From Hyalangium versicolor (GTDB taxonomy: Bacteria; Myxococcota; Myxococcia; Myxococcales; Myxococcaceae), in NCBI RefSeq assembly GCF_020103695.1, contig NZ_JAHXBF010000014.1:108297-172296 (forward strand): a DNA stretch of 64,000 nucleotides, in the 5' to 3' direction. A model generated the notes under the pieces. The model searched no databases. It was not told where the DNA came from and saw nothing but the letters and a program-made list of their open reading frames with translations. Position 1 is the stretch's first letter; every line of letters starts with the position of its first letter. The translations under genes were made by a program, and so were the position numbers. This document shows, one piece after another, positions 19,434-34,643 of the stretch.

Positions 19434-19437
19434 CGCA

Positions 19438-20577
19438 TCATCCTGGCAACCCGAGTCCCGGCGCATCCGGCAATTGGATGCGGCCTCCCACAGGGCGGTA
19501 GAGATCCTCCGCCGGATCATCCACCTTGAAGAGCTTCCCCACTCCGAGCCCCGAGGCGAGCTTCCCCGAAGGCAGCGCCGCAGCCAGGTGGGCCGCGCCC
19601 GCTCGCGAGACGATCCCATCCAGCGAACTCGTCACGAAAGCCTCCAGCCCTCGCTGATGCGCCTCCCGCGCGAACATCAGCGCGGGCAGCAGCCCTCCGA
19701 GCACCATGGGCTTGAGCACGAAGGCCCGCGCGGCCGGCATGCGATCGGCGGTGCCTCCGAGCAGCACGGGGATGGCTTCGGGTAAGGCAAGAGATTCATC
19801 CGCGGCCAGGGGGAATGGCGCACGCCGCTGGAGCCGCCAGAGCCCTCGAAGATCTTCCGGCGCCACAGGCTGCTCACACAGCTCGAGCCCGTACCAGCCC
19901 AGCCGATCCACCGCGTGCACCGCCTCGCGCTCCGACCAGCCCCCGTTCGCATCCACCCGGATGTTCACCTCGGAGCCCACCGCCTCGCGAACCGCTCGGA
20001 GCCGTGCCTCGTCCGCGTCGAGCGGCCGGCCTGCCACCTTCAGCTTGACCGTCCGATAGCCCTCTGCCACCGCCTGGCGAGCCTCCTCGGCCAGCTCCCG
20101 CGGATCCTCCGCCGTGAGCAGCGCGTTCACCAGGACCTCCGAGCGCGAAGCCCGGTTGAGCAGCCGGCTCAGGGGGATCTCCCGACGCTGCGAGAGCAGA
20201 TCCAGCAGCGCCAGCTCCACCGCATGGTCCGCCGCAGGGGCCTCGGGCAGATCATCCTCGACTCGCAGCTGCGCGCCTCTCCACTGTGACGGATCCCCTC
20301 GGGGAGCGGCGAAGGCATCCTCGATAGCATCCAGGCTGTCGCTGAGCACCTGGTCCCTCAGCGCCTTGAGGTGGCTGCGAATCACCTGCTCACAGGTGTC
20401 CAGGGACTCGGTGCCGAACTCCGGCAGCGGCATGGCCTCGCCCTGCCCCACCCGGCCCTCTTCATCCACGAGCTTCACGAGGAAGCCCTCTCGCGCCGCG
20501 TACGTCGCCCGAGCCGTCTTCAGCGGGCGCACGAGCTCCAGCCGCGAGGGCGTCAGCCTCGTCTCGGTGATGTGCAT
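19438..20577 (-). CDS. menC: o-succinylbenzoate synthase (enolase superfamily, MLE/MenC subgroup)
   Basis: Enolase-superfamily barrel with metal-ligand spacing (..VKLKVAG.., ..IRVDANGGW.., ..LCEQPV..). It sits between menE and menA. Confidence 0.7.
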   Translation of the reverse strand: MHITETRLTPSRLELVRPLKTARATYAAREGFLVKLVDEEGRVGQGEAMPLPEFGTESLDTCEQVIRSHLKALRDQVLSDSLDAIEDAFAAPRGDPSQWRGAQLRVEDDLPEAPAADHAVELALLDLLSQRREIPLSRLLNRASRSEVLVNALLTAEDPRELAEEARQAVAEGYRTVKLKVAGRPLDADEARLRAVREAVGSEVNIRVDANGGWSEREAVHAVDRLGWYGLELCEQPVAPEDLRGLWRLQRRAPFPLAADESLALPEAIPVLLGGTADRMPAARAFVLKPMVLGGLLPALMFAREAHQRGLEAFVTSSLDGIVSRAGAAHLAAALPSGKLASGLGVGKLFKVDDPAEDLYRPVGGRIQLPDAPGLGLPG

Positions 20578-20584
20578 GCGCTCT

Positions 20585-21532
20585 TCACCTCAGGTAGAGA
20601 CCCAAGGCGAAGAGTAGCCCGAACACGAGCTGCAGGCGCGCCGTTCCCCCGAGTGCCGGGTTCAACGCCGCCCCCTCGGCTCCGAGCACGAGTCGCAACG
20701 GCCCCACGGCCAGCGGCGCGCTCAGGAGTGAGAGAAACACCCACGCGCTGGAGAGCCCGAAGGTGTAGAGGATGAACGGGGTGGCGTAAGAGGCCACCAG
20801 CAACACGATGTACTCCGCCTTGCCGGCCCCCGTGCCGAAGCGGACGATCAAGGTGCGCTTGTTGGCCTTCACGTCCGTCTTCGCATCGCGCAGGTTGTTG
20901 ACGACGAGGAGCGCCGTGCCCAGCGCGCCCACCGGAATGGCGGCGAGCCACGCGGCCGAGCTCACCGTGAGCGCCTGCACGTAATAGGTGCCCATCACCG
21001 CCACGAGCCCGAAGAACACGAAGACGAACACGTCTCCCAGCCCATGGTAGGCCAGAGGGGCGGGCCCACCCGTATAGGCATAGCCGCACAGCACCGAGGA
21101 CAGGCCGATGATCACGATGGGCCAGCCTCCCACCCACACCAGATAGGAACCCGAGAGGATGGCCAGGCCGAAGCACGCCATGGCTCCCGCCAGCACCGTG
21201 CTCGGAGCGATGAGCCCGCTCTGGGTGACGCGCACGGGCCCGAGGCGCTCCTCGGTGTCGGCGCCCTTCTTGAAGTCGTAGTAGTCGTTGGTGAAGTTGG
21301 TGCCGATCTGGATCAGCAGCGCCCCCACGAGCGCCGCGATCGCCGGCAGCCAGCGGCCCACCTGCTCGCCGAACGCCAGGCCCGTGCCCACCGCCACCGG
21401 CACCAACGAGGCCGTGAGCGTCTTGGGCCGGACGGCCATCAACCAGACCTTGAGCGAGGGACGAGGACGGGCCTCACCTCCCGGGACGGGAGCGGCGGGG
21501 CTCAGAGAGGGCGAGGCGGCATCGGGCTTCAT
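20585..21532 (-). CDS. menA: 1,4-dihydroxy-2-naphthoate polyprenyltransferase (UbiA superfamily)
   Basis: Multi-TM UbiA-family protein with an Asp-rich motif (NDYYDFKKGAD). The start at ATG 21532 (MKPDAASPS) was verified. The upstream 36 aa of the tracked ORF is an artefact. Confidence 0.8.
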   Translation of the reverse strand: MKPDAASPSLSPAAPVPGGEARPRPSLKVWLMAVRPKTLTASLVPVAVGTGLAFGEQVGRWLPAIAALVGALLIQIGTNFTNDYYDFKKGADTEERLGPVRVTQSGLIAPSTVLAGAMACFGLAILSGSYLVWVGGWPIVIIGLSSVLCGYAYTGGPAPLAYHGLGDVFVFVFFGLVAVMGTYYVQALTVSSAAWLAAIPVGALGTALLVVNNLRDAKTDVKANKRTLIVRFGTGAGKAEYIVLLVASYATPFILYTFGLSSAWVFLSLLSAPLAVGPLRLVLGAEGAALNPALGGTARLQLVFGLLFALGLYLR

Positions 21533-21539
21533 GGGGAAC

Positions 21540-22364
21540 TCACAGGTGGACTTCGAACTCGGGGGCTTCGTACCAGGGCGTGTGCAGGAAGGAGAGCACT
21601 TCGCGCGCGTAGTCCTCCGGCACCTCCAGGTGCGGCACATGCCCGCAGTCCGGGAACGTGTGCCGCCAGACCACGGGCAGCTCGGTGGCCATCTTGCGCG
21701 CGATCTGCGTGAACTTCTCGTCCAGCGCTCCGGTGAGCAGCAGCGTGGGCAGGCGCTGGCGGTGCAGCTCCGGCCAGTAGTCCGGCTGGAACCCGAGCCC
21801 CAGCCGCCCCAACGCGCCCATCAGACCATCGGCCGTGCAGCTCTTGCGGCGCTCTCGCAGGCCGGCGATCCGCTCGGGAGGCAGGCGCTGGAGGCTCTGG
21901 AACAGGGGCAACGACTCCCAATGATCCACGAAGGCGTCCAGCCCCTTGGTGCGCAGCAGGGTGCCGAGCCGGCCGTCCGCCTCCCGCCGCTCCGCGCGCT
22001 CGATGCGCCGGTGCAGGCCGGGCGAACCACTCTCCAGGATGAGGCGTCCGAAGCGCTCTGGCTTGTGGAGCGCGGCCCCGAGCGCGATCCGGGCACCCAT
22101 CGAGTAGCCCAGCAGATCCACAGAGGGCAACCCGAGCTTCTCCACCAGTTGGACCACCGCCTCCACCGTCTCGATGAAGCCCTCGCGGCCCTTGCGCTGG
22201 GGCAGCGGCGTCTCTCCATGTCCCGGCAGATCGATCGCGATCGCCTTCACCGCGCTGTGCAGCAACGGGCGCAGGTGATCGAACGACGAGCGGTTGCCGG
22301 TGAAGCCGTGCAACATCAACAGCGGCCGGGTTCCCTCTCCCCAGGTGCTGTAGGCCAGCGTCAC
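21540..22364 (-). CDS. menH: 2-succinyl-6-hydroxy-2,4-cyclohexadiene-1-carboxylate synthase (alpha/beta hydrolase)
   Basis: LMLHGFTGN oxyanion region, the nucleophile elbow GYSMGA and a C-terminal catalytic His (DCGHVPHLE). The tracked 512 aa ORF is a fusion artefact running antisense through the menD 3' end. The real start is proposed as GTG at 22364, overlapping the menD stop as GTGA and giving the E. coli-like 16 aa lead before LHGF. Confidence 0.7.
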   Translation of the reverse strand: MTLAYSTWGEGTRPLLMLHGFTGNRSSFDHLRPLLHSAVKAIAIDLPGHGETPLPQRKGREGFIETVEAVVQLVEKLGLPSVDLLGYSMGARIALGAALHKPERFGRLILESGSPGLHRRIERAERREADGRLGTLLRTKGLDAFVDHWESLPLFQSLQRLPPERIAGLRERRKSCTADGLMGALGRLGLGFQPDYWPELHRQRLPTLLLTGALDEKFTQIARKMATELPVVWRHTFPDCGHVPHLEVPEDYAREVLSFLHTPWYEAPEFEVHL

Positions 22365-24118
22365 GCCCAAGGTCCATCTCCCAGCGCAGCCGCCATCCGC
22401 GCGAAGAGTTGCCGATGCTCCTCCACGTTGCGCGCCCGATCGGTCCGGACCTCGATGAGGTGCAGCCCGCCCTCCAGCCCGACCTTCACCGAGGCGCGCA
22501 GCGCCGGAGCGGAATCCGGACGGTGGAACTCCGCGCCGTAGAGCGACGCCGCGTGCGACAGGTCCACGCCGTGCGGCGTGCCGAAGAGCGGCTCGAAGTG
22601 CTCTGTCGTCCCGGCCAGCGGCAGGAAGGAGAAGATGCCGCCTCCGTCGTTGTTCACCACCACCACGGTGAGCGAGAGATCGTGCCGACGCGCGGTGAGC
22701 AGTCCGCCCACGTCGTGCAGGAAGGCCAGGTCTCCGGTGAGCAACACCGTGGGCCGCCCCGAGGCCGCCGCCATCCCGAGCGCGCTGGAGATGATCCCGT
22801 CGATGCCGTTGGCGCCCCGGTTGGCGAGCACCCGGAGCGGCATGGCGCTGCCCGGCGCAAAGGCGTCCACGTCCCGGATGGGCATGCTGCTGGAGACGAA
22901 GAGGTTCGCACCCGACGGGAGCGCGGCGACCACCTCGCGGGCAATGCGTGGCTCGGTCAGCGAGACATCCTCGGCGAACGCGGCCTCGAGCACGTTCCGG
23001 ATGAGGCCCTCCGCGCGGAGGAAGCCCTGAGCCCAGCTCCCCAGCCCGCGAGACAACCCCCGAGAGAGCGCCTCGCACACGGCCACGGCCGAGCCCTCGA
23101 TGGCCTGCGCCGCTCGATGAGCGGGATCGAAGAGCGCACCGTCATCGCTGAAGAGCACCGTGTGCGCGCCCGATGCGTCGAGCCACTGCTGCGGCACCTT
23201 GGGCGTCAGGCCTCCACCGAAGCGCAGCACCAGCTCCGGCCGCTGCGCCTGGGCAAAGGGAGCGTGGCGCAGCATCGCGTCATAGAAGGAGAGCATTCCG
23301 GCCCCTCCTCCGTAACGGGCCTGGGAAGCGGCCTCGGCGATGACCGGATAGCCCGTGGCGTGCGAGAGCGCGGTGATGGCCTCCGCGAAGCCGTCCTCCT
23401 CGTCCCGAGGGCCGCAGACGATGAGCCCTCGCTCGGTATCGGAGATCCGCCGGCGGACCTCGTCCAGCGCGTGCGGAGCCGGCTGACGCGCAGCCGGGGC
23501 AATGGTGATGATCCCCTTGCCGGCTCGGCCCTCTCGGACAATCGCGGACAGCTTCTCTTCGCCAAAGTCCTGGGGCACGGGAGCCAGCGGCTCCCGGAAC
23601 GGAACGTTGAGGTGCACGGCCCCACGAGGCGCTCGCAGCGCCACTCCCACGGCCCGAGCCGCTGTGGCGCGCAGGTGGGCCAGGGCCACATCGCTCGCCT
23701 CGGGCAGTCCCACGTCCGCGAAGAAGTGGGAGAACTCTCCGAAGAGGCGCCCCTGAGGAATCGTCTGCGGCGCGCCCCACCCTTGCAGCTCCAGCGGCCG
23801 GTCCGCGGTGAGCACCACGAGCGGCACGTTCGACATCGCCGCCTCGATCACCGCAGGATAGAAGTGCGCCCCTGCCGTCCCGCTGGTCGCCACCACCACC
23901 GCTGGCGTGCGCGTCTGCTTGCCCACGCCCAACGCGAAGAAGCCAGCGCTGCGCTCGTCGATGACGGACCAGACCTTCAGCCCTTCCACCCGAGCGCATG
24001 CGAGCGCCAACGGCGTGGAGCGTGACCCCGGGCACACCACGACGTGCCGGACGCCACCATGCACCAGCTCCTCCAACAGAGCCCGTGCCCACAACTGATT
24101 GAGGTTCACGTCCGCCAT
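22361..24118 (-). CDS. menD: 2-succinyl-5-enolpyruvyl-6-hydroxy-3-cyclohexene-1-carboxylate synthase (ThDP-dependent)
   Basis: MenD-specific N-terminus (WARALLEELVHGGVRHVVVCPGSRSTPL) and a ThDP-binding GDLAFLHD...NNDGGG motif. 585 aa. Confidence 0.85.
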   Translation of the reverse strand: MADVNLNQLWARALLEELVHGGVRHVVVCPGSRSTPLALACARVEGLKVWSVIDERSAGFFALGVGKQTRTPAVVVATSGTAGAHFYPAVIEAAMSNVPLVVLTADRPLELQGWGAPQTIPQGRLFGEFSHFFADVGLPEASDVALAHLRATAARAVGVALRAPRGAVHLNVPFREPLAPVPQDFGEEKLSAIVREGRAGKGIITIAPAARQPAPHALDEVRRRISDTERGLIVCGPRDEEDGFAEAITALSHATGYPVIAEAASQARYGGGAGMLSFYDAMLRHAPFAQAQRPELVLRFGGGLTPKVPQQWLDASGAHTVLFSDDGALFDPAHRAAQAIEGSAVAVCEALSRGLSRGLGSWAQGFLRAEGLIRNVLEAAFAEDVSLTEPRIAREVVAALPSGANLFVSSSMPIRDVDAFAPGSAMPLRVLANRGANGIDGIISSALGMAAASGRPTVLLTGDLAFLHDVGGLLTARRHDLSLTVVVVNNDGGGIFSFLPLAGTTEHFEPLFGTPHGVDLSHAASLYGAEFHRPDSAPALRASVKVGLEGGLHLIEVRTDRARNVEEHRQLFARMAAALGDGPWA

Positions 24119-24416
24119 CTGCTCCTCAGCGTGTTCGCCGCCTCCACGCCAGAGACTGCGCCGCCGCTCCTGCTGGCCCGACGATCGTGTTCTACGTCAG
24201 TTTGGTCGAACATCCACACGGAGTTCAAAACCGCGTGAATTCCGCTGACGCACTGTGTGTCCTGAACCTGGACTGTAAGTGTTCCTCCGAGGTGCCCTAC
24301 TCGGCCGTTTCAGCCCATAGAGCCCTCAAGATTTACCGTACTGTCACGTTTTTACTTCCTTCATAGAGGGGGGCTTCATCTATCGTACCCGCCTCCCTTT
24401 TCACCCGGAGGATGAC

Positions 24417-24827
24417 ATGGAGCAGGCAGCTGCAGAGGCGAACCGGATCGTCGACGAGCACTTCAAGGCCGAGGGGTCCATGAACATCGACGCCATCATG
24501 GCGACCTACACGGATGACATCGAATTCGATGTGGGCGGGATGCCGGAGACGTTGCGTGGCAAGCAGGCCGCGGCCGGCTTCTACAAGCAGCTCTTCTCGG
24601 ATCTGCTGACGGACAAGGTGACGCCGCTGCGCCGCCTGGTCTCGCCGACCTTCGTGATCGATGACGCCATCTACGAGTGTCGCGCGGTGGGTCGGCCGTT
24701 TGGCATCGAGGGCAAGGGCCGGCCGGTGAAGTTCCGCTTGATGCACATCTTCGAGATTCGCGACGGCCGCATCTCGCGCGAGAACGCCTGGCTGGACGTG
24801 GGCGCCATCCAGCAGCAGCTCGCCTAG
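24417..24827 (+). CDS. SnoaL-like / NTF2-fold protein (ketosteroid-isomerase-like)
   Basis: 136 aa with the typical SnoaL pattern (IVDEHFKAEGSMNIDAIMATYTDDIEFD...RISRENAWLD). Transcribed divergently from menD. Confidence 0.7.
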   Translation: MEQAAAEANRIVDEHFKAEGSMNIDAIMATYTDDIEFDVGGMPETLRGKQAAAGFYKQLFSDLLTDKVTPLRRLVSPTFVIDDAIYECRAVGRPFGIEGKGRPVKFRLMHIFEIRDGRISRENAWLDVGAIQQQLA

Positions 24828-24844
24828 CGTTCGTCGGAAATCTC

Positions 24845-24871
24845 CGGGGCCTGGCTCACTCCCAGGCCCCG
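24845..24871. terminator. Perfect 10 bp GC hairpin between convergent genes (candidate bidirectional terminator)
   Basis: CCGGGGCCUGG-cucacuc-CCAGGCCCCG, positions 24845-24854 pairing with 24862-24871. It lies between the SnoaL-like gene end (24827, +) and the lipoprotein gene end (24934, -). There is no U-tract, which is common in high-GC genomes. Confidence 0.4.
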
Positions 24872-24933
24872 CGTCGCGGCGAGCCACTGTGCCCTGGAGC
24901 ATCCTGGCTCCAGAGCACGGGCCACGGCCGGAA

Positions 24934-25986
24934 CTACTGCGGCAGGCAGAGATACGGCGGCGTCGGCCCCGCGGGACCGTTCGGCTCATCCGCGCGCCAG
25001 AGCTGGGTCGACGAGTAGTTGATGACGGTCGGCGTCGGCGGAGCATCGATGGGAGGGAAGAACCAGGGGTGGCCAGTCACCGGATCCGCCGGAGCCGTGT
25101 CCTTGAACTCGTAGTGGATCACGGGAGGAGGAGTCCCACTGGCCGCCAGCAGGACCACGGTGATGCCCAGGGGGCTGGTCGCCGCATCGGTCACGATGTA
25201 GCCGCGCGTGGAGCGCAGGTTCGCGGGCGGAGTTCCCGGAGGAGCCCAGTCGATGTGCAGCACCCGTCCGGCGGAGGCCTCGACCGTCGTGTCACCCGCG
25301 GGTCCACGCAGCAGCGGCGAACCGGGCTGGAAGAGCCAGAAGACAGCCACGTTCGCGAACCGGCCCGGATTGAGCAGATCCGTCACGAGAGTCGGCGTCC
25401 CATCCACCACGGACAGGTGCTTGGCCACCGCCTCGAGAATACCAACGGTGCTCAGGCTGGCCGCCTCCTGCACGGCGCAGATGCTGTTGTGCGTGAAGAC
25501 CGGGCGCAGCGTCACGGTCGGCACGTAGCCGCCCGACGGAATGGCCGGCAGCGGAGGGCCAAAGGGCGGCGGGTTCAGCGTGCCCGTCGGCAGCGCGGTG
25601 ATGAAGTACGGCGCGTACGTCCGGCTGGCGACAGACGGAAGCGTCCACAAGCCCCCGTCGTCCGCCTGGACGGGATCCGCCGCGGGAGCGCCCGTGGTGG
25701 GATCGAACGGAAGAACGGTGGCTCCCTTCAACGACGAGCGCAGGAAGAGCGGGCTGTTGTCGAGGATGAAGGGCGGGATGCCGCAGTTGCCGCAGTTGGC
25801 CACGTTCATGAACCAGGCCTCGGGGTCCCACGCGAACCCGGAGACGCGCGAGGTCCTCGGCTGGTACTGGGTGACCTTGGGAACCGGGATGAAGGGGGAC
25901 TCCGGCGGACCCGCGTTGTCTGAGGTGCAGCCGGCTCCCAGCAGGAGCCCTCCCAGCAGGGCTGCTTTGCGAAAGGTTCGGTTCAT
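24934..25986 (-). CDS. Pro-rich lipoprotein, last gene of the cytochrome operon
   Basis: Signal peptide plus lipobox-like LLLGAGC|T. Many PP/PxxP tracts and a single CGNCG pair. No recognisable domain. It starts 9 nt after the multihaem cytochrome stop. Confidence 0.6.
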   Translation of the reverse strand: MNRTFRKAALLGGLLLGAGCTSDNAGPPESPFIPVPKVTQYQPRTSRVSGFAWDPEAWFMNVANCGNCGIPPFILDNSPLFLRSSLKGATVLPFDPTTGAPAADPVQADDGGLWTLPSVASRTYAPYFITALPTGTLNPPPFGPPLPAIPSGGYVPTVTLRPVFTHNSICAVQEAASLSTVGILEAVAKHLSVVDGTPTLVTDLLNPGRFANVAVFWLFQPGSPLLRGPAGDTTVEASAGRVLHIDWAPPGTPPANLRSTRGYIVTDAATSPLGITVVLLAASGTPPPVIHYEFKDTAPADPVTGHPWFFPPIDAPPTPTVINYSSTQLWRADEPNGPAGPTPPYLCLPQ

Positions 25987-25994
25987 GGCGGCGC

Positions 25995-27929
25995 TTACAA
26001 CCCTTCGGTGGAGGGAAGGATGTGGGACTTCGGAGGAGTGTTCACGTGGCAGGCCTGCGCGCAGTTACCGAAACGGTTGGGCTCGCCAGTGCTGGAGAAC
26101 TTCGCCTGGAAGAACTGGTTGTCATGCGCCGAGGGGTGGCACGAGGCGCACAGGGTGATGCTCGGCCGCAGCGTGCTCCGCTTCGTCAGGTGGCACATGG
26201 TGCAGTCGCTCTTGTTCGCCGGGTAGCGCGACGACGTCATGTGGATCTTGTGAATGAACTCCTGCGGGCGGTTGTACAAGTCGTTGTTGAACATGTGGCA
26301 CACCTTGCAGCTCTCCACGTGATCCACCGAGAGGCCGTGGCGCAGGTTGTCCAGCGACAGCACGCCTCGGTGGCAGATCTGGCAGTTGCCCACGTCGCCC
26401 GGGTAGGAGGTGCGCTCGGACTGCCCCACCTGGAAGAAGAAGGCGTTGAGCTTGGAGGTGCGCTCACCCATGAAGTAGCGGTTGTTCTTCACCAGGGCCA
26501 CGTAGGTGCCGGCCTTGGCGTCCTTGGGCAGCGTCTTCGAGATGCGCGTGGGCCACTTCATGGTGTTCATGCCCGTGGGCAGGTGCACCGTGGCCGGCTC
26601 ATCCGCCAGCGCGTAGAAGAAGTCCGGACCGAAGTACTGCGCCGGAGCGGTCGGATCGCTGCGCACCCGCATGTCCTGGAGCGGGCCGGCGATCTGCACC
26701 GCGGGCACCATGTCGTAGTCCATCACCGTGTCCAGCAGGGGGATGAGCGCGTAGAGCAAGCCGTTGGCGTTGTTGCTCGACACCTCGGCACCGCTGGGCA
26801 ACGTGTCCGCCGGGTGGAGGCGGTTGCCCTCGCCGTCGCGCACGTCCACGAACAGATCCAGCAGCTCACCCGGCTGGTAGTAGTCCAGGCCGTTGACGGG
26901 GGCCGCCATGGTCAGGCGCGGCGCCAGACCGAAGCCACACGGCTTGGCGTTGCCCGAGTCATCGGTGCACGTGGCCGGCACGTCCTGCGGGTTGACGTAG
27001 GTGACTGGGAAGTAGAACGGGGAGTCCTTCATCTGGCTCCACGTGATCTTGATGGTGCCGTCACCGCGCAGATCGCCCACCTTGAACGTCTTGAAGGGGT
27101 TGGTGCTACCAATGGCGTCCATGCGCACCATGGTGCGGAACAGCGGCGGCTCCGGCGGCCAGCCGGGCACCTGCGGAATCGGGCGCGCCACCTGATCGCC
27201 AGGGGCCACCGGCGGCATCACCTTCTCCATGCGCCACATGATGCGCGAGTGGCCCGCGGACCAGGAGTCCGCGAGGAACTCGGAGCGCGCGTACGTCACC
27301 GGCTCGCCACGCACCACACCATCGAAGTCGAGGATCTCGATGGTGAAGGAGTCATCCGTGGCGGTGCGCCAGTTGGCGTTGTCAAACAGCACCTGGCGCG
27401 CCCAGGAGTCGTGGGTGGCGCCAGGGACCGCCGGGAGGAACTTCCACTCGTCCGACACCTGGCTGAGGTTGCTCCAGTCCAGCTTCTTGAAGACCGACTC
27501 GTTCTTCATCCACGAGATCGCGGCGGACAGATCGCCGGGCGTCGTGTGCTTGTCGACGACCGTGTCCGTGACGGTGAACTGGTTGAGGAAGTACGTCGTG
27601 TTCGCCTGGATCTGGATCCGGCCGGTGGGATCCACCAGCGTCTTGGTGGGCTCATCCAGGGGCGAGGCCAGCGACGGGCACTTGTCCGGATAGGGGAAGA
27701 AGGTGGCGGAGTTCTTCGCCGCCATCTGCCCGTTGGGCAGGATGGCGCAGCCGTTGAACATCTGGAGGCTGAGGCGAATGGCTCCCGAGGCCGCCGACTG
27801 GTAGGGGTCGAACACCTTGGCCCCTCGTCCGCCGGTGCTCTCTGAGTCAGACACCTTGAGCAAATCGCACCCCAACATCGGTACCAGGAGTGCGCACACT
27901 GCGGCTTGGAACAGAATGGATCGCTTCAT
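25995..27929 (-). CDS. multihaem c-type cytochrome lipoprotein (4 CxxCH + 1 CxxxCH) with a large N-terminal non-haem domain
   Basis: Real start ATG at 27929 (MKRSILFQAAVCALLVPMLGC, lipoprotein signal). The C-terminal ~150 aa carry CQICH, CKVCH, CTMCH, CASCH and CAQACH. The preceding ~480 aa have no haem motifs. Confidence 0.7.
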   Translation of the reverse strand: MKRSILFQAAVCALLVPMLGCDLLKVSDSESTGGRGAKVFDPYQSAASGAIRLSLQMFNGCAILPNGQMAAKNSATFFPYPDKCPSLASPLDEPTKTLVDPTGRIQIQANTTYFLNQFTVTDTVVDKHTTPGDLSAAISWMKNESVFKKLDWSNLSQVSDEWKFLPAVPGATHDSWARQVLFDNANWRTATDDSFTIEILDFDGVVRGEPVTYARSEFLADSWSAGHSRIMWRMEKVMPPVAPGDQVARPIPQVPGWPPEPPLFRTMVRMDAIGSTNPFKTFKVGDLRGDGTIKITWSQMKDSPFYFPVTYVNPQDVPATCTDDSGNAKPCGFGLAPRLTMAAPVNGLDYYQPGELLDLFVDVRDGEGNRLHPADTLPSGAEVSSNNANGLLYALIPLLDTVMDYDMVPAVQIAGPLQDMRVRSDPTAPAQYFGPDFFYALADEPATVHLPTGMNTMKWPTRISKTLPKDAKAGTYVALVKNNRYFMGERTSKLNAFFFQVGQSERTSYPGDVGNCQICHRGVLSLDNLRHGLSVDHVESCKVCHMFNNDLYNRPQEFIHKIHMTSSRYPANKSDCTMCHLTKRSTLRPSITLCASCHPSAHDNQFFQAKFSSTGEPNRFGNCAQACHVNTPPKSHILPSTEGL

Positions 27930-27970
27930 GGATGGTGGGTGACTCGGAGGTTCCGGGAAAGGACCATGCC

Positions 27971-29176
27971 TCAGGGAATGTTGGCGGCCTGCTGCTGCAC
28001 CCACGAGGCCAGGGAGACGGCCTGCGGCTCATCGAGCAGCTGCTCATAGGTGGGCATCTGGGTCCCCGGGAGGATCTTCTCCGGGTTGCGGATCCACTTG
28101 GCCACCTCCTCGCTGGACTTGCCGCGAGACTGCTTCAGCATGGCCCGGTACTTCGCGCCCTCACCGTGGCACAGCGCGCAGCCCAGCTGGACGAAGAGCA
28201 CCTCGGGCTTCTCGCTCTGGGGCGCGGCCTTCACGCGCGGCGCCGCGTCATCCGGCAGGGTCGCGTCGGACTTGGGAACGCTCTGCAGGTACTTGTAGAG
28301 GGCCTCCGCGTCCACGTCGTCCAGGCCGCGCACCCGGATCATCGGAGCGCGCAGCGCGAAGCCGTCGCGGGTGATGCCATCGCGCAGCGCGCGGCCGAAC
28401 TCCGGCAGCGTGTACGCGCCCAGCGCCTTCTCGTGGAAGGTGATGTTGGTGGAGTAGATGCCACCCTGCGGTGTGTCGAAGAACTTGAAGCCGCCCTTGA
28501 AGGCGTCCGGCCCGCGGGCCTTGTCGCCGTCGTGGCCCGGCGTGTGGCACTCGGAGCACACGTACACATCGTTGGCCAGGTAGGAGCCGTACTCCACCGT
28601 GGGGCCCTTGGGGGGCGCCTGGATGCCCGAGGCCGGCCAGTTCGGGACGGGCGCCAGGCCCATGCCCAGGGCGAACTTGCCCAGCGGCGTGGTCTGCGGG
28701 GTCGGCTGTGGCCGCTCGTCCGGGGTGAAGAGCGGGTCATTCGACCGGATGAAGCCGATCACGGCCGACAGATCCTCGTCGGACATCTTGAAGGGGGGCA
28801 TGACGACCAGGCGACGGCCATCGCGGGCGACGCCGAAGCGGACCGCGCGCGCGATCTTCTCGTCCGGGACGTCCTTGATGCCCGCGGTCGGGTGACCCGT
28901 CAGGTTGGCCGAGGTGATGTTGCCGAAGGGCTTGGGCAGGTCCGGCATGGTGCCGCCCGCCGCGTGGTTGCTGCTGTCCTGGACGTGGCAGTCGTAGCAG
29001 ATGTTCTTGAAGATGTGCTCGCCACGAGCAATCGCCTGGGGATCGGTCGCCGCATGAATCGGAGGAAGCGGCGTGTCATCCACCAAAGTCGAGAGCTTGG
29101 AGCTGGCCTTCAAGAACAAGCCGCCTGCCGCTGCTACGACAAGAACGACGAGCCCAATCAGGATTTTTTTCAGCAC
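27971..29176 (-). CDS. membrane-anchored tri-haem cytochrome c (alcohol/gluconate-dehydrogenase cytochrome-subunit-like)
   Basis: N-terminal TM helix (ILIGLVVLVVAAAGGLFL). Three class-I haem sites: CYDCH, CSECH and CALCH, the last with a downstream Met region (PGTQMP). Confidence 0.75.
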   Translation of the reverse strand: MLKKILIGLVVLVVAAAGGLFLKASSKLSTLVDDTPLPPIHAATDPQAIARGEHIFKNICYDCHVQDSSNHAAGGTMPDLPKPFGNITSANLTGHPTAGIKDVPDEKIARAVRFGVARDGRRLVVMPPFKMSDEDLSAVIGFIRSNDPLFTPDERPQPTPQTTPLGKFALGMGLAPVPNWPASGIQAPPKGPTVEYGSYLANDVYVCSECHTPGHDGDKARGPDAFKGGFKFFDTPQGGIYSTNITFHEKALGAYTLPEFGRALRDGITRDGFALRAPMIRVRGLDDVDAEALYKYLQSVPKSDATLPDDAAPRVKAAPQSEKPEVLFVQLGCALCHGEGAKYRAMLKQSRGKSSEEVAKWIRNPEKILPGTQMPTYEQLLDEPQAVSLASWVQQQAANIP

Positions 29177-29241
29177 TGTTCGTGTCCTTGAGCCGTGAGA
29201 GTGGGAGGAGGGGGTCGCACACCCGTCCCCTATGTTCCTCA

Positions 29242-29265
29242 GGTAACAAAGCCGATTACATTACC
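29242..29265. promoter_or_regulatory. Inverted repeat GGTAA-N14-TTACC in the promoter region of the cytochrome operon
   Basis: GGTAAcaaagccgattacaTTACC, with an internal ATTAC direct repeat. It sits in a locally AT-richer patch 66-89 nt upstream of the cytochrome start codon (29176), between menF and the cytochrome gene. Confidence 0.2.
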
Positions 29266-29393
29266 GAATGCGAGCGAGTCAAGTAAGGCCCCCCCTACCC
29301 AGACTCCGCCGCAGGGCCTCCGCCCAAGGGCAACGGGAGAGCAACAGCACGGTGCGCCCGCATGCCCGCCTCCCCCGATCCGCACCACCCGCG

Positions 29394-30713
29394 TTAGCGC
29401 TTTGCACTCGAGCCCGAGAGGGCCTGAAGCATGGCCAGGCTCTTGATTTCCGTCTCGCGCCACTCGGACTCGGGGCTCGACCCCTGAACGATCCCCGCTC
29501 CCACGAAGAGCCGGGCGTGGGAGCCCCGGACCAGCGCCGAGCGCAAGGCCACCGCCATATGGGCTCCGGCTGGCCCTACCCAACCCACCGGCCCCGCGTA
29601 CCAACCCCGATCCAGTGCCTCGGCCTGGCGCAGGAACCCCAGCGCCGCCTCTCGGGGGACGCCCCCTACCGCAGGGGTCGGGTGCAGCGCCTGGACCACA
29701 TGGGCCGGGCTCACCGAGTTGCGCAGCTCGGCGCGGATGCCGGTCCGCAGGTGCACCACATTCTTCAGCGGCAGAAGCGACGGGGAGGAGTCAGCGGAGA
29801 CCCGGACCGCCAGGGGCCTGAGGGCCGAGAGGATGTAGTCCACCACGGCCTCGTGCTCGCGGCGGTCCTTGTCACTGCCGCCCAGCCCCTCGGCCAGCGT
29901 CGGCGCCGCGGAACCCGCCAGGGCCTCCGTCTCCAGCGTCCGCCGGTCCACTCGGCACAACGTCTCGGGCGTGGCGCCCAGGAATGCCACGCCTCCCGGC
30001 GCGTGGAACATGAATGTGACACAGCGCGGATTCTGCTCGCGCAGGCGCGCCACCACGTCCACCCGGTTGAAGGGCCGAGAGCCCTCGGCCTCCACCGCCC
30101 GGGCCATGACCACCTTGCGCAGCCGCCCGGAGGCGATCTCTTCCAGCGCGCCGCCGACACGGGCCTCGAAGTCCTCGCGAGAGGCCGACAGCTCGAGCGA
30201 GACCGGCTCGCTCCGCGGATGGTAGTAGCGGGTCGGAAAGCTGTCGCACACCTGCTTCAGCCGGGCGCTCACCCCAGCCTCCTCCCCTCCCCCTCGCCAC
30301 GGCGCCAGCACCATCACCGCGAGCTGCTTGCCCACGCGCCACACCAGCAGCTCGGGCAGCGTCCAGCGCGCCACGCCGTGCGCCTTCCACGGCTCACTGC
30401 TGGGGGAAGTCAGATCGAAGCGCATCCCGCCAAACCACGGGCCGGGGATCCACTCGGGGCTCTGCCCGATCCACCGCAGCTCCATGCTCGAGCCCAGCAT
30501 CCCGAGGATGTGGATGGCCTCGGCCGCGTCGTGGGCTTGCAGCACGGACAGCTCGCCCCACCCCGCCACCGCTTCCTGCGTCTGAGAACGCTCCCAATAG
30601 AACGAGGGCTCGCCCAGCACCGCGGCGCCCGCCAGCGGATCGGCCGCATCCAGCAGGGCCATTTCCGCCACCCAGCGCTCGGCCTGATCAGCGTGGAGCT
30701 TCATTATCGGCAC
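29394..30713 (-). CDS. menF: isochorismate synthase
   Basis: Chorismate-utilising enzyme fold with the conserved C-terminal motif block (...PTPAVGGVPREAALGFLRQAEALDRGWYAGPVGWV...) and MST-family length. It is divergent from the aro operon and colinear with the cytochrome and men genes. The start could be the Met at 30704. Confidence 0.8.
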   Translation of the reverse strand: MPIMKLHADQAERWVAEMALLDAADPLAGAAVLGEPSFYWERSQTQEAVAGWGELSVLQAHDAAEAIHILGMLGSSMELRWIGQSPEWIPGPWFGGMRFDLTSPSSEPWKAHGVARWTLPELLVWRVGKQLAVMVLAPWRGGGEEAGVSARLKQVCDSFPTRYYHPRSEPVSLELSASREDFEARVGGALEEIASGRLRKVVMARAVEAEGSRPFNRVDVVARLREQNPRCVTFMFHAPGGVAFLGATPETLCRVDRRTLETEALAGSAAPTLAEGLGGSDKDRREHEAVVDYILSALRPLAVRVSADSSPSLLPLKNVVHLRTGIRAELRNSVSPAHVVQALHPTPAVGGVPREAALGFLRQAEALDRGWYAGPVGWVGPAGAHMAVALRSALVRGSHARLFVGAGIVQGSSPESEWRETEIKSLAMLQALSGSSAKR

Positions 30714-30741
30714 GTTCTCCGTGAATGCCGCAAACCTTGCG

Positions 30742-30810
30742 TTGACCTCGGTGTCTCTCGTAATACTCGATTTCTTACAAATGTGTATACGCAGTGGACT
30801 TGTATCAGCG
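30742..30810. promoter_or_regulatory. AT-richer divergent intergenic region (menF and aro operon) with TTGACC, TAATAC and GTATAC/TTGTATC elements
   Basis: TTGACC (30742-47) and TAATAC (30761-66) are hexamer-like but spaced 13 nt apart. This is followed by TGTATAC (palindromic GTATAC) and TTGTATC 17 nt later. Codon usage at 30794-30840 is atypical for coding, so the aro-operon start is probably downstream of here. Confidence 0.2.
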
Positions 30811-31729
30811 AGCTTTTCTCCGTGGAGGCCATGTGGGCGGAAGGGGGACTGATCAGGGCGTTCAGGGTGCCTCCAAGACGGGGCCGAATCGCGCGCGGAG
30901 AGAGGTGCGCCCCGAGGGCACGCGTATCACCGTGGGCCGGGTGGAGATCGGCGGCCCCGGCTTCGTGGTGATGGCGGGCCCTTGTGCCGTCGAGGACGCG
31001 GAGCAGACGGAGCAGTCGGCAGCGGCGGTGGCGGCGGCAGGAGCCCATGTGCTGCGCGGCGGCGCCTTCAAGCCCCGCACCAGTCCGTATGCGTTCCAAG
31101 GGCTGGGTGAACCCGGGCTGCATTTGCTGGCCGAGGCGGGCCGGCGCCACGGGCTGCCGCTGATCAGCGAGGTGATGGATACGGCCCAGATCCCGCTGCT
31201 GATGGAGTACTCGGACATCCTCCAGGTGGGCGCGCGGAACATGCAGAACTTCAGCCTGCTGCGCGCGCTGGGCAAGGTGCGCAAGCCGGTGCTGGTCAAG
31301 CGCGGGCTGGCCGCCACCATCGAGGAGTGGTTGCTGGCGGCGGAGTACGTGCTGGACGGCGGCAACGAGCAGGTCCTCTTGTGCGAGCGCGGCATTCGCA
31401 CCTTCGAGACCGCGATGCGTAACACATTGGATCTGGCGGCGGTGACGTATGTGAAGCAGCGCTCGCACCTGCCCGTCATCGTGGATCCCTCGCACGCGAC
31501 GGGGCATCCGGGGCTGGTGGTGCCCATGTCCCTGGCGGCGGCGGCAGCGGGCGCGGACGGGCTGCTGGTAGAGGTACACCCGTGGCCCGAGCGAGCGCTG
31601 TGTGACGGCGCCCAGGCGCTCACGCCCGAGCGCTTCCAGGACTTGATGAATCGGCTCCCCGCCGTGCTGGGCGCCGTGGACCGCTTCCTCTGGAAGGATT
31701 CGCCCGTCCCAGCTGTGGGAACGCGATGA
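30794..31729 (+). CDS. aroG: 3-deoxy-7-phosphoheptulonate (DAHP) synthase, type I-beta (KDO8PS-like) core-only form
   Basis: The core aligns with Thermotoga/Pyrococcus-type DAHPS ([24 protein letters not shown]...[20 protein letters not shown]...VDPSHATG). There is no N-terminal ACT/CM domain. The tracked start at 30794 is a GTG in a region of poor codon usage. The true start is probably an internal GTG, for example near 30905. Confidence 0.75.
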
Positions 31730-31768
31730 GCACCAACTTGCGACAATGGGTAGCCCATCCGACGACGC

Positions 31769-32386
31769 TTGGGACATCCTACGCCCATGTCGGAACAGTC
31801 CGCTGATGCGCGGCGCCTCATCCTCGTAGAAGTCCTCGACAACCTCGATCCGCGCCTGCGCCACCAGTTGCACGCGGCGCTCACCCAGGAGGCGCCGGGC
31901 ACGCTCCCCGCGCCTGGGCAGACCGTCGTGATCGCGGGACACCGCGCCGCGGGAAAGACCCGGGTGCTCCCCCTGCTCTCGCGGCTGCTCGGACGAGAAG
32001 GGATAGACCTCGACAAGAGCCTGGAGAAGTCCTCGGGGCGCTCGCTGCGCACCTGGGTGGCCGAGGATCCGAAAGCGTTCCGAGCCGCCGAGCGCCAGGC
32101 CCTCCTGGGAATCGCTCCTGGGAGCCTGGTGTCCGTGGGCGGAGGGTTTCTGTCCCACCACCCGGACGCCCTGGAAGGCATGTTCACCCTCGTCGTGCCG
32201 ATCTCCTTCGAGACGTACCGGGAGCGCCTGCTGGCCGACAGCTCCCGTCCCCGGCTGAGGCCCGGCGTCTCCTTGGATGAGGAGATCGCTTCAGTGTTCC
32301 ATGAGCGCGAGGCCCTGCACGCCCGTGTCCCCTCCATTCCTCTTGTGGACTTCCTCCGCGGTTTCTGGCGTGAGGAAGGTTCATGA
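31769..32386 (+). CDS. aroK: shikimate kinase
   Basis: P-loop VVIAGHRAAGKT followed by the shikimate-kinase-style DLD..., at ~200 aa. It sits between DAHPS and aroDE. The start may be Met 31787. Confidence 0.6.
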   Translation: MGHPTPMSEQSADARRLILVEVLDNLDPRLRHQLHAALTQEAPGTLPAPGQTVVIAGHRAAGKTRVLPLLSRLLGREGIDLDKSLEKSSGRSLRTWVAEDPKAFRAAERQALLGIAPGSLVSVGGGFLSHHPDALEGMFTLVVPISFETYRERLLADSSRPRLRPGVSLDEEIASVFHEREALHARVPSIPLVDFLRGFWREEGS

Positions 32387-33627
32387 GTTCCGCCCTTCGA
32401 GTGGTGACGCTGCCTCCCACGCTCTCCGGAGCCGAAGCGGTGCGCTTTGCTCAAGAGATCCGCCACCGGGGCGCCAACGTCCTCGAGATCCGGACGGATC
32501 TGCACGCGCCCACGGCCGTGGACATCCCGGCACTGGCCCGGGAGCTGCCGCTGCTCGTCTCCGAGCGGGGACAGCCTCTTCCCCCGCTCTGGGTCGAAGC
32601 CTCCACCTACGTGGACCGGGATGTGACCGTGTCCGTCGATGCGCCTCCGACGAAGCTGGTGGCCTCGCACCACGCCGAGCGCCCGCTCTCCACTGCGGAG
32701 GCCCTCGCGCTCTGGAACCAGGATCTGCCCAGGAACGCCTTCGTCAAGCATGTCGAGCCGCTCGGCTCCCTGGCGCGGATCCCGGAGCTGTTGGAGACCC
32801 AGGCCCGGCTGATCGAGCGCTTCGGCGCCGGCCGGGTGACGGTGCTCGGAATGGGGCCGGTGGCGCTCCCGGTGCGCGCCGTGCTCGCCCAGCGCAATGC
32901 CCTCGACTACCTGGCGGCCGGAGGCAACTGGAACTCGGCTCCCGGACAGCGGCTCCTGGATGATGCGGTCCGCGAGGCTCGCGCCGCGGGAACAGCCACG
33001 AGCCTGCGCCGAGGCATCCTGGGGACCTCGATCGTCCACTCGCGATCGCCCCGCATCCACAGGCAGCCCTTCGATCGCATCGACATCCCCGAGGAGGGTC
33101 CCGTCGAGGAGCTGGTCGACGCGCTGATCCCCCACTACGCCGGCTTCGCCGTCACCAGCCCCTTCAAGCTGCGCCTGGCCAGGCACACCCGCTCTCCGCT
33201 GGAGGCCATCAACACGCTCGTGCGCCGGGGCACCCGCTGGGAGTCCTTCAACACCGACGTTGAGGGGGCACGCGCTGTCCTGAAGCGGCTCGGGGTGCGA
33301 GAGGCGTTCGTGCTCGGGGATGGAGGCTCCACCGCGGCCCTGCGCTCCGTGGCGGGAGACGTAGGATGCCAGCTGCGCATCCTCAAACGCGCGGACATCC
33401 GTGAGCCGCTTTCGGGCGCTGGCGTGTGGACCTGGCCGGACCGGATCCCCGCCCCCGAGGAACTGCGTTTCGACGGGGCCCGCGTAGCGGTGATTGCTTA
33501 TGGAGCCCCCGGCCGGCGCGTGGCCAAGGAGATCTCGCGCCGAGGAGGCACACCCGTCATGCTGGGGGCTGCGTGGTTCATCGCGCAGGCCCGACGCCAG
33601 CGCGAACTCTGGGAGACTGCGACATGA
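32383..33627 (+). CDS. aroDE: bifunctional 3-dehydroquinate dehydratase (type I) / shikimate 5-dehydrogenase fusion
   Basis: N-terminal half has the type-I DHQase pattern (VLEIRTDL...). C-terminal half is AroE (GILGTSIVHSRSPRIH, NTDVEG, VLGDGGSTAA Rossmann). Its ATG overlaps the aroK stop. Confidence 0.75.
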   Translation: MSSALRVVTLPPTLSGAEAVRFAQEIRHRGANVLEIRTDLHAPTAVDIPALARELPLLVSERGQPLPPLWVEASTYVDRDVTVSVDAPPTKLVASHHAERPLSTAEALALWNQDLPRNAFVKHVEPLGSLARIPELLETQARLIERFGAGRVTVLGMGPVALPVRAVLAQRNALDYLAAGGNWNSAPGQRLLDDAVREARAAGTATSLRRGILGTSIVHSRSPRIHRQPFDRIDIPEEGPVEELVDALIPHYAGFAVTSPFKLRLARHTRSPLEAINTLVRRGTRWESFNTDVEGARAVLKRLGVREAFVLGDGGSTAALRSVAGDVGCQLRILKRADIREPLSGAGVWTWPDRIPAPEELRFDGARVAVIAYGAPGRRVAKEISRRGGTPVMLGAAWFIAQARRQRELWETAT

Positions 33628-34643
33628 ATACTCTGGGAATCCTCTTCCGCCTCACCACCTTCGGTGAGAGCCACGGCGTCGCGCTGGGCTCGATCATCGA
33701 TGGCTGTCCCGCCGGCGTTCCGCTGACCCGGGATCAGATCCAGGCCGCGCTGGACCGCCGCCGTCCGGGACAGTCCTCCATCACCACCGCCCGCGCCGAG
33801 CCGGATCAGGTGGAGATTCTCTCGGGAGTCTTCGAGGACAAGACGCTGGGCACGCCGATCGCAGCCATCGTGCGCAACACGAACCAGCGCTCGGGGGACT
33901 ACGACAAGCTGAAGACGGTGGACCGCCCGGGCCACGCGGACGCCGTGTGGCGCGAGCGCTACAAGCACCGCGATCACCGGGGCGGCGGCCGCACGAGCGG
34001 GCGCGAGACGCTCTGCCGCGTCATCGGCGGCGCGGTGGCCGAGGCCTTCCTGGCGCGCGATCTGCCTCGGGTGAGCACGGTGGCCTGGGTGTCGCAGGTG
34101 GGAGACCTCGTCGCCGCGGTGCCGGAGCCCGGTATCACGCGGGCGCAGGTCGACGCGCACGCCACACGCTGCGCGGATCCGGTGGTGCGCGAGGAGATGT
34201 CCAAGCGCATCCTGGCGGCCAAGGAGGCCGGAGACAGCCTGGGCGGCTCCATCGACATCCGCGTCGAGGGTCTGCCCGTGGGGCTCGGTGAGCCCATCTT
34301 CGGCAAGCTCAAGGCGCTCATCGCGCAAGCGCTCGGGAGCGTGGGCGCGGTGACAGGCGTCGTGTGGGGCCCGCCGGATCTGCTGGCTCGCATCGAGCAG
34401 CCCGGCAGCGTCTTCCACTCGCAGAAGGAGATGTACGGCGGCATCCAGGGAGGCCTGGCCAACGGCGAGCCGATGCAGTTGCGCGCCTTCTTCAAGCCTC
34501 CCGCCACGCTCGCGGAGCACGCCAAGGGCGGCCGTCATGATCCGTGCATCATGCCGCGCGCGGTGCCGGTGCTCGAGGCGATGGTCTCCATGGTGATCGC
34601 CGATCTCGTCCTGCAGATGAACGCCTTCCACCACACCGCATGA
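33624..34643 (+). CDS. aroC: chorismate synthase
   Basis: MNTLGILFRLTTFGESHG...GGRTSGRET...GRHDPC are canonical AroC motifs. The ATG at 33624 overlaps the aroDE stop (ATGA). The tracked ORF has a 66 aa artefact upstream. Confidence 0.9.
   Translation: MNTLGILFRLTTFGESHGVALGSIIDGCPAGVPLTRDQIQAALDRRRPGQSSITTARAEPDQVEILSGVFEDKTLGTPIAAIVRNTNQRSGDYDKLKTVDRPGHADAVWRERYKHRDHRGGGRTSGRETLCRVIGGAVAEAFLARDLPRVSTVAWVSQVGDLVAAVPEPGITRAQVDAHATRCADPVVREEMSKRILAAKEAGDSLGGSIDIRVEGLPVGLGEPIFGKLKALIAQALGSVGAVTGVVWGPPDLLARIEQPGSVFHSQKEMYGGIQGGLANGEPMQLRAFFKPPATLAEHAKGGRHDPCIMPRAVPVLEAMVSMVIADLVLQMNAFHHTA

Follow-up and report, generated by a model that had tools for sequence, protein, structure and literature searches.

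We analysed a 64,000-nucleotide stretch of the Hyalangium versicolor genome (contig NZ_JAHXBF010000014.1; hereafter the window, in whose numbering all coordinates are given). Between the menaquinone biosynthesis gene menF and the menDHACE genes lie three minus-strand open reading frames (ORFs), in the order menF, gene 1 (cyt3), gene 2 (G2) and gene 3 (G3), which encode a tri-haem cytochrome, a penta-haem lipoprotein and a proline-rich lipoprotein. They form a self-contained module that encodes no catalytic subunit and whose conserved core is G2 plus G3. We suggest, with a little less than even confidence, that the module is an extracytoplasmic electron-transfer chain running from the quinone pool to an outer-membrane-tethered cytochrome. 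All the ORFs and flanking genes placed here by a first-pass annotation, made from the sequence without database searches, were confirmed.

27971-29176, minus strand: gene 1 (cyt3), 401 amino acids, identified by translation and by Pfam matches to Cytochrome_CBB3/Cytochrom_C
25995-27929, minus strand: gene 2 (G2), a 644-amino-acid lipoprotein comprising a linker, Ig-like beta-sandwiches and a C-terminal penta-haem domain
24934-25986, minus strand: gene 3 (G3), a 350-amino-acid, Pro-rich lipoprotein with the lipobox LLLGAG preceding Cys20

The spacers measure 217 nt between menF and gene 1, 41 nt between genes 1 and 2, and 8 nt between genes 2 and 3.

Gene 1 is related to cytochrome subunits of membrane dehydrogenases

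The product of gene 1 begins with a hydrophobic helix, VLKKILIGLVVLVVAAAGGLFL, forming a transmembrane (TM) segment at about residues 4-22 (nucleotides ~29111-29167), followed by three haem c sites:

28985-28999, minus strand: CYDCH, residue 60
28544-28558, minus strand: CSECH, residue 207
28166-28180, minus strand: CALCH, residue 333

Across 22 homologues, the three CxxCH sites and the candidate axial ligands M279 and M374 are invariant, while M131 is found in at least 90%. We infer that cyt3 is anchored in the inner membrane by its single N-terminal helix, with three His/Met class I haems predicted to face the periplasm. The deposited NCBI gene 1 model is 380 amino acids long and begins 21 codons after the GTG at 29176, which removes the helix; this start is probably wrong, because homologues of 399-404 amino acids conserve the helix (29111-29176 in the window).

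When the cyt3 family profile was searched against the PDB, it matched the cytochrome subunit of fructose dehydrogenase (FdhC, 7w2j_C; 4e-33), the beta subunit of glucose dehydrogenase (8hdd_B; 2.8e-31, colinear over residues 44-398 versus 24-409), alcohol dehydrogenase subunit II (8gy2_B; 9e-26) and aldehyde dehydrogenase (8gy3_A; 3e-22). Cytochrome subunits of membrane-bound dehydrogenases were also matched when the single cyt3 sequence was used as query. The resemblance to quinone-linked cytochrome subunits of membrane dehydrogenases proposed in the first-pass annotation is thus one of homology, colinear across all three haem domains: residues 44-398 of cyt3 span three class I His/Met haem c domains arranged as in those subunits. 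In the dehydrogenases, these subunits link a periplasmic redox partner to the membrane quinone pool.

Several features nevertheless distinguish cyt3 from them. Its membrane anchor is an N-terminal TM helix, and the chain stops at residue 401, only three residues past the aligned third domain, whereas the PDB chains extend to 444-486 amino acids; cyt3 thus lacks their C-terminal membrane-binding tail of ~70 amino acids. There is no pyrroloquinoline quinone- or flavin-dependent dehydrogenase gene nearby, and no dehydrogenase catalytic subunit was found in any related locus examined; the neighbours of cyt3 in the window are menF, G2 and G3, with a multihaem lipoprotein taking the place of the dehydrogenase partner. 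The quinone of the host is menaquinone, as opposed to ubiquinone for the dehydrogenase systems.

Gene 2 carries a probable divergent MtrC/MtrF-type penta-haem domain

The mechanical ORF of gene 2, read from a GTG at 28004, encodes 669 amino acids, and the ATG at 27929 gives the 644-amino-acid protein, which is 100% identical to a deposited H. versicolor hypothetical protein (NCBI). Its lipoprotein signal, MKRSILFQAAVCALLVPMLG, precedes the lipid-modified Cys21, invariant in 46 homologues. The mature protein divides as follows:

26418-27809, minus strand: non-haem region, residues 41-504, stacked Ig, macroglobulin or FN3-like beta-sandwiches
25998-26417, minus strand: penta-haem domain, residues 505-644
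26370-26384, minus strand: haem site CQICH, residue 516
26295-26309, minus strand: haem site CKVCH, residue 541
26190-26204, minus strand: haem site CTMCH, residue 576
26136-26150, minus strand: haem site CASCH, residue 594
26046-26063, minus strand: haem site CAQACH (CX3CH), residue 623

This C-terminal arrangement of four CxxCH sites and one CxxxCH site, already described in the first-pass annotation, is upheld by conservation: all five sites, which lie within the last 130 amino acids, are invariant in the 46 homologues, as are H531, H560, H563, H602 and H636. None of 20,000 composition-preserving shuffles of G2 yielded even two CxxCH motifs in the last 150 amino acids. Because the five additional invariant His residues match the five sites in number, they suggest five bis-His haems with no open catalytic site, and bis-His ligation is the probable state of the G2 haems.

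We used AlphaFold2 to model G2 (mean predicted local distance difference test score (pLDDT) 80, predicted template-modelling score 0.82). A Foldseek search with the model returned MtrC (6qyc_B; 2.4e-6, probability 1.0), and among cytochromes only MtrC/OmcA were found. At the sequence level, 41 of the 46 family members match PF22113 (MtrC/MtrF domain II/IV) at E ≤ 0.01, the best at 1.2e-7, and the sole PDB match to the family profile, a marginal one, was MtrF (3pmq; 0.0077). The G2 haem domain is accordingly a probable, divergent domain of the MtrC/MtrF type. The ~480-amino-acid non-haem part, for which a catalytic role had been entertained, proved to be an Ig-like sandwich stack in the model: structure searches found no catalytic fold and no cofactor motif in the N-terminal region, where Cys61, Cys84, Cys321 and Cys331 are invariant.

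G2 therefore resembles MtrC, OmcA, MtrF and UndA of Shewanella in having a lipoprotein signal with a lipobox Cys, a compact five-haem domain in which each site is paired with an extra His (probably as bis-His ligands) and beta-rich domains. It differs in having one penta-haem domain with 5 sites, where the Mtr proteins have two domains and 10-11 haems; in a beta part built of Ig/macroglobulin-like sandwiches instead of split beta-barrels I and III; and in the CX3CH motif of its fifth site. Moreover, no gene for an MtrA-like periplasmic decahaem protein or an MtrB-like porin accompanies the module, G2 has an obligate lipoprotein partner in G3, and the host is an aerobic myxobacterium. The module fits neither the Mtr family proper nor the dehydrogenase cytochrome subunits. 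As the first-pass annotation had anticipated, it could not be assigned to any characterized respiratory complex by family scans or PDB searches.

Gene 3 encodes a beta-sandwich lipoprotein

G3 contains 15.1% Pro and, in keeping with the earlier description of a protein without a recognizable sequence domain, has no Pfam or NCBIfam match. Its predicted structure is confident (pLDDT 85.8), and a structure search revealed transthyretin/CarboxypepD_reg/CnaB-like beta-sandwiches. Cys170 and Cys347 are invariant. No cofactor motif, no catalytic fold and, beyond one probable disulfide, no conserved His/Met/Cys cluster were found in G3. We considered G3 as an MtrB-like porin and rejected this, as the model is that of a soluble-type beta-sandwich lipoprotein.

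Lys at position +2 has been reported as an inner-membrane retention signal in M. xanthus (PMC3222651). Because it is never present in the G2 or G3 families, both proteins are predicted to be outer-membrane lipoproteins, and we consider their tethering to the outer membrane a weak inference. The missing signal is also the sole indication that G2 might be exposed on the cell surface and reduce extracellular acceptors.

G2 and G3 form a conserved pair with variable neighbours

All 117 close homologues of G2 are from Myxococcaceae/Archangiaceae and all are annotated as hypothetical proteins; G3 has the same taxonomic distribution. An exhaustive profile search with G2 retrieved 216 proteins at E ≤ 1e-3. 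Among these, second-tier relatives, such as those of Pendulispora albinea, are lipoproteins of 590-670 amino acids that share with G2 the last beta-sandwich and the domain of four CxxCH sites plus CX3CH, while in relatives further removed the fifth site reads CX4CH or CxxCH. The presence of CX3CH in the second tier marks it as an old, conserved feature. Several genomes hold more than one G2 copy: H. minutum has two unlinked copies (loci L006 and L007), and loci L043 and L079 each contain two within 20 kb, those of L043 flanking a non-ribosomal peptide synthetase (NRPS) gene. These cases indicate that the family expands by duplication within genomes. No paralogues of the module genes were found inside the window.

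Searches of genomes and metagenomes, together with look-ups, gave 82 loci that encode a full-length G2. Of these, 78 have enough flanking sequence to judge the pairing, and in 76 of the 78 the next gene downstream of G2 is G3, making the two an obligate pair. A class I cytochrome is encoded within 8 kb of the pair, upstream or downstream, in 53 of the 82. Its type varies: in the clade of the window it is a tri-haem protein with a TM helix, while in M. xanthus it is a di-haem lipoprotein.

The linkage to menaquinone biosynthesis emphasized in the first-pass annotation holds for the window and some of its close relatives and does not extend to the family as a whole. A men gene lies no more than 8 kb from the module in only 16 of the 82 loci, all of them in the clade of the window (clade A), where they occupy three separate positions in a neighbour-joining tree and show four arrangements: menF-cyt3-G2-G3-...-menDHACE in the window and in its closest relative, L008 (77% identity); cyt3-G2-G3-menF in L011; menA(reverse)-cyt3-G2-G3(-menF) in L029 and L084; and menA-G2-G3-cyt3 in eleven Corallococcus loci. 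The UbiA-family gene of Corallococcus scores 189 bits on the menA model TIGR00751, for which the cut-off is 102.

In the next closest relatives (Stigmatella; G2 69% identical in L009) and in Hyalangium rubrum, the same three genes stand behind a TonB-dependent receptor (TBDR) block. Here, genes for a TPR protein, a PhnD-like binding protein, a TBDR, a 286-amino-acid protein and a STAS/Ser-Thr kinase run in the same direction as, and ahead of, cyt3-G2-G3 (Stigmatella aurantiaca; H. rubrum; and L009, which the name given to its cyt3 assigns to Stigmatella hybrida). The TPR-PhnD-TBDR block recurs in L014, where cyt3 is missing. In total, a TBDR adjoins G2-G3 in 10 of the 82 loci (L050, L053, L054, L057, L059, L082, L009, L014, L090 and L091), and in L050, L053, L057 and L059 the ORF of the receptor touches or overlaps that of G2 or G3. 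The best model for these receptors is the haem/haemoglobin receptor subfamily, with scores of 142-215 bits that fall below the cut-off of 317. Four receptor-linked loci also encode a CCP_MauG di-haem peroxidase beside G2.

This setting recalls bipartite systems of a TBDR and a lipoprotein (TbpAB/HpuAB, SusCD) and the MauG-like MbnH/MbnP metal systems linked to TBDRs, both in the receptor beside G2-G3 in 10 loci, with CCP_MauG in four, and in the transthyretin/CarboxypepD_reg-type fold of G3, which is common in receptor-associated lipoproteins. It differs in that the window has no receptor and that the receptors elsewhere fall short of the curated cut-off. Neither G2 nor G3 showed homology to TbpB, HpuA, SusD or MbnP, and we know of no covalent multihaem lipoprotein partner in those systems.

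A further ~27 loci, which we term type B, are found in Myxococcus (MXAN_1612), Pyxidicoccus, Archangium, Vitiosangium and Citreicoccus. Their G2-G3 genes are distant paralogues (41-44% identity). An NRPS gene lies upstream, and the cluster itself runs from a 57-60-amino-acid ORF through a Rieske/VanA_C oxygenase gene and, where present, the gene for a di-haem lipoprotein cytochrome to G2-G3 and a pair of TldD/PmbA protease genes. The small ORF matches the NCBIfam model for ammosamide/lymphostin leaders of ribosomally synthesized and post-translationally modified peptides (RiPPs) with 55 bits against a cut-off of 30 (M. xanthus, L001:7719-7901). The arrangement seen in L001 recurs in about 26 loci, among them L003, L030-L049, L080 and L081. 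A pair of multihaem-type lipoprotein genes thus lies within a cluster that resembles one for a RiPP. The remaining loci have no men, receptor or type B neighbours.

Two other neighbours recur. In type B loci and two Corallococcus loci, a gene near G2 encodes a protein of 470-740 amino acids, or 650-740 for the divergent type B form, with no firm family and a weak DUF1302 match (E 3.6e-4); it may be an outer-membrane beta-barrel partner. Examples are:

L001:5824-7242, minus strand: 470-740-amino-acid protein
L003:5771-7744, minus strand: 470-740-amino-acid protein
L015:5344-7575, plus strand: 470-740-amino-acid protein, with ~23 other loci

In several clade A loci, G3 is followed downstream by a block encoding a SLOG/LDcluster4 protein, a small ORF, a 1,430-amino-acid adenylate/guanylate cyclase-AAA-TPR protein and a radical SAM protein:

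L014:13448-20890: SLOG/cyclase/radical SAM block
L091:14465-21209: SLOG/cyclase/radical SAM block, seen also in L012, L015, L016, L019, L056 and L069

The module and menDHACE are separate transcription units

The features that surround the module in the window are:

29394-30713, minus strand: menF, isochorismate synthase (Pfam Chorismate_bind; TIGR00543, 297.6 bits, above cut-off), co-directional with and immediately 5' of gene 1
29255-29282, minus strand: candidate promoter TTGACT-N16-TGTAAT in the spacer between menF and gene 1, read from the sequence only
24835-24933, minus strand: two strong GC-rich hairpins directly 3' of the gene 3 stop codon (minimum free energy -61.3 kcal/mol, z -4.1)
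24417-24827, plus strand: SnoaL-like gene, 136 amino acids (Pfam SnoaL_2, 1.4e-13), convergent to gene 3 and located between gene 3 and menD
22361-24118, minus strand: menD (Pfam/NCBIfam)
~21552-22370, minus strand: menH (tblastn with MenH of L008)
20585-21640, minus strand: menA (Pfam/NCBIfam)
19438-20577, minus strand: menC (Pfam/NCBIfam)
17991-19619, minus strand: menE (Pfam/NCBIfam)

Divergent from menF, a shikimate/chorismate operon (30794-36969) encodes 3-deoxy-D-arabino-heptulosonate 7-phosphate (DAHP) synthase, shikimate kinase, chorismate synthase, 3-dehydroquinate synthase and 5-enolpyruvylshikimate-3-phosphate synthase. The longest-ORF calls of menE and menC share 180 nt, with the true starts downstream of the mechanical ones, and menH proper is read in frame with the long ORF 21540-23078 and does not correspond to the 282-amino-acid ORF 21529-22377.

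A stricter consensus scan reported no sigma-70 promoter, leaving the site at 29255-29282 a candidate. The consensus scan also gave no convincing intrinsic terminator; the hairpins after gene 3 were instead read from the sequence and folded, and none of 200 shuffles folded equally well. They probably mark the end of the transcription unit. No Rfam match was found in 24000-31000. Since the convergent SnoaL-like gene separates them, the cytochrome genes and menDHACE cannot share one transcription unit. A single men-cytochrome operon was accordingly rejected, the module being divided from menD by the SnoaL-like gene and the hairpins. The three cytochrome-module genes form a unit of their own, into which transcription may read through from menF.

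The SnoaL-like gene is what remains in the window of a set of three genes that accompanies the module. These encode a Glyoxalase, an O-methyltransferase (Methyltransf_2) and a SnoaL protein, and they are found to one side or the other of the module, in the orientation opposite to it. The trio is complete in L008 (13038-15072) and L011 (6293-8353); L071 shows only SnoaL (27-419) at a contig end, and L009 (13227-14794) and L090 have the Glyoxalase and O-methyltransferase genes with neither SnoaL nor a nearby men gene. Only the SnoaL-like gene is present in the window, from which Glyoxalase and O-methyltransferase are absent. In L008, a UbiE/MenG-type methyltransferase gene (5633-6322) also lies between the genes for DAHP synthase and shikimate kinase. 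In the window, a match of only 22 amino acids (31729-31803) remains, indicating that this gene has been lost from the locus.

A putative route from the quinone pool to the outer membrane

No part of the module resembles a catalytic unit, and the best supported function is therefore electron transfer that connects the redox pool of the inner membrane with a site associated with the outer membrane. In the mechanism we propose, menaquinol or a membrane cytochrome would give electrons to cyt3, which would pass them to the five-haem wire of G2. The Ig-like sandwich stalk of G2 would carry this C-terminal haem chain, through which electrons could be delivered to an acceptor at or near the outer membrane, and G3 would probably complex with G2 as a scaffold, docking or substrate-contact subunit. 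Menaquinol is reported as the respiratory quinone in myxobacteria. A menaquinol link is plausible for the version of the module in the window, given the homology of cyt3 to cytochrome subunits that couple to quinone and the position of the module in a menaquinone locus. As to the acceptor, paralogues sit in operons with haem-receptor-like TBDRs and MauG/CCP peroxidases, and this analogy favours above all the reduction of Fe or Cu, as metal or as chelate, that an outer-membrane transporter would handle. In leading electrons from quinone via c-type haems in the direction of the outer membrane, the proposed path would parallel that of porin-cytochrome (Pcc/MtrAB) systems, from which the module differs in having neither a porin nor a periplasmic multihaem component, G3 being a beta-sandwich lipoprotein and not a barrel.

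A number of observations weigh against this proposal. The module encodes no outer-membrane barrel or periplasmic shuttle. The metal substrate is borrowed from paralogues, and the 64-kb window contains no TBDR, CCP or putative barrel. Because cyt3 lacks the C-terminal membrane-binding tail of the dehydrogenase subunits, their reactivity with quinone is not transferable by homology, and about one-third of loci have no nearby cytochrome, which means that the G2-G3 pair can function where cyt3 is missing. In the G2 model, confidence is lowest in the haem domain (pLDDT 50-75), and the match of the G2 in the window to PF22113 (E 9e-5, 22.5 bits) is below the gathering cut-off of 30. The +2 Lys rule is based on 8 of 12 proteins. 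Finally, a literature search turned up no mention of the M. xanthus homologues MXAN_1610-1613, the supplements of two M. xanthus membrane/outer-membrane vesicle proteome papers do not list MXAN_1611-1613, and no relevant published work on myxobacterial multihaem lipoproteins or any family member was found.

Alternative explanations

The alternative that fares best, which we nonetheless regard as unlikely at about one chance in several, is a periplasmic respiratory branch. Here, cyt3 would be a tethered carrier akin to CcoP or cytochrome cy, fed by bc1 or alternative complex III, and G2-G3 would feed oxidases or periplasmic enzymes such as di-haem peroxidases, with the men adjacency a historical accident. 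The missing men linkage in 66 of the 82 loci is in line with this, as is the CCP_MauG gene beside G2 in four loci, and the variability of the cytochrome partner (tri-haem with TM helix, di-haem lipoprotein or absent) is typical of interchangeable carriers. Cyt3 is also weakly similar to CcoP and bc1 cytochrome c subunits, but dehydrogenase subunits match it ~29 orders of magnitude better than these and at least 11 orders better than any non-dehydrogenase PDB chain. Moreover, neither lipoprotein has an inner-membrane retention signal, and the operon fusion with TBDRs would be left unexplained.

Somewhat less probable still is that the module serves a quinone shuttle, reducing or oxidizing a soluble or specialized naphthoquinone derived from 1,4-dihydroxy-2-naphthoate (DHNA), an intermediate supplied by the men pathway. 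The compound would be tailored by the products of the SnoaL-like, O-methyltransferase and glyoxalase genes, and G2 would act on it as MtrC/OmcA do on flavin/quinone shuttles. Ammosamide/lymphostin-type leader peptides are associated with quinone-type products (pyrroloquinoline alkaloids), and the type B paralogues, with their RiPP leader, Rieske oxygenase and TldD/PmbA genes, place G2-G3 in a second kind of small-molecule cluster. The four arrangements in which men genes adjoin the module, and the Glyoxalase/Methyltransf_2/SnoaL genes beside it, of which Glyoxalase and O-methyltransferase persist even where men genes are missing (L009, L090), argue in the same direction. Shewanella offers a precedent in the DHNA-derived shuttle ACNQ (PMC6687433). 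Against this, the window has lost the glyoxalase, O-methyltransferase and MenG/UbiE genes of its closest relative, no transporter or shuttle-specific enzyme was identified, many paralogues have none of these neighbours and the linkage may reflect gene order inherited within one bacterial suborder.

We assign a lower probability again, little more than one chance in ten, to electron flow in the reverse direction, whereby G2-G3 would take up electrons from a donor in the periplasm or outside the cell, such as Fe(II), Mn(II), reduced humics or a compound imported via TonB, and cyt3 would deliver the electrons to the quinone pool or an oxidase. In the characterized homologues of cyt3 (alcohol and fructose dehydrogenase subunit II), electrons indeed leave the partner subunit and reach quinone by way of the three haems, and an oxidative role would suit the aerobic physiology of Myxococcaceae. 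Reduction of low-potential menaquinone by c-type haems is, however, thermodynamically unfavourable unless the donor is very reducing, and neither G2 nor G3 has an evident metal centre or donor-binding site.

That G2 is a known multihaem enzyme of the nitrite, hydroxylamine or sulfite reductase type, the refutation envisaged in the first-pass annotation, has nothing to recommend it beyond the presence of several haem sites and is effectively refuted at the sequence and fold level, there being no NrfA, HAO, MccA, Otr or other enzyme family match in Pfam, NCBIfam or the PDB, no CxxCK site or other hallmark of a catalytic haem with an unusual ligand (Tyr cross-link, CX15CH), no obviously open coordination site given five invariant extra His for five haems, and no cytochromes other than MtrC/OmcA in the fold search.

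Implications for myxobacterial physiology

Extended to the whole family, the proposed route from the quinone pool to the outer membrane becomes considerably more speculative. We think it improbable, though worth stating, that Myxococcaceae/Archangiaceae possess an unrecognized family of trans-periplasmic conduits, each built from a menaquinol-linked cyt3, a 'half-MtrC' G2 and G3, with paralogues plugged into TBDR metal uptake, MauG peroxidases and quinone/RiPP clusters, and that the H. versicolor copy uses menaquinol made next door to reduce an outer acceptor, either a metal chelate or a DHNA-derived shuttle. If the module is merely a redundant periplasmic electron carrier, the finding is an ordinary one.

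Myxococcaceae and Archangiaceae are regarded as strict aerobes. If the module is a working conduit, these social, predatory and nominally aerobic bacteria would gain an MtrC-like electron route to the cell envelope, which could serve reductive Fe/Cu acquisition, the redox cycling of quinones that the cells secrete, or survival in swarms and fruiting bodies that run short of oxygen. Such a conduit would also add a single-unit protein, consisting of a beta-domain and a penta-haem domain, to the MtrC/OmcA family, and thereby bear on the origin of the duplicated decahaem proteins. The family accounts for more than 100 'hypothetical proteins', and MXAN_1611-1613 in M. xanthus, together with the copies in Stigmatella and Corallococcus, provide genetically tractable targets.

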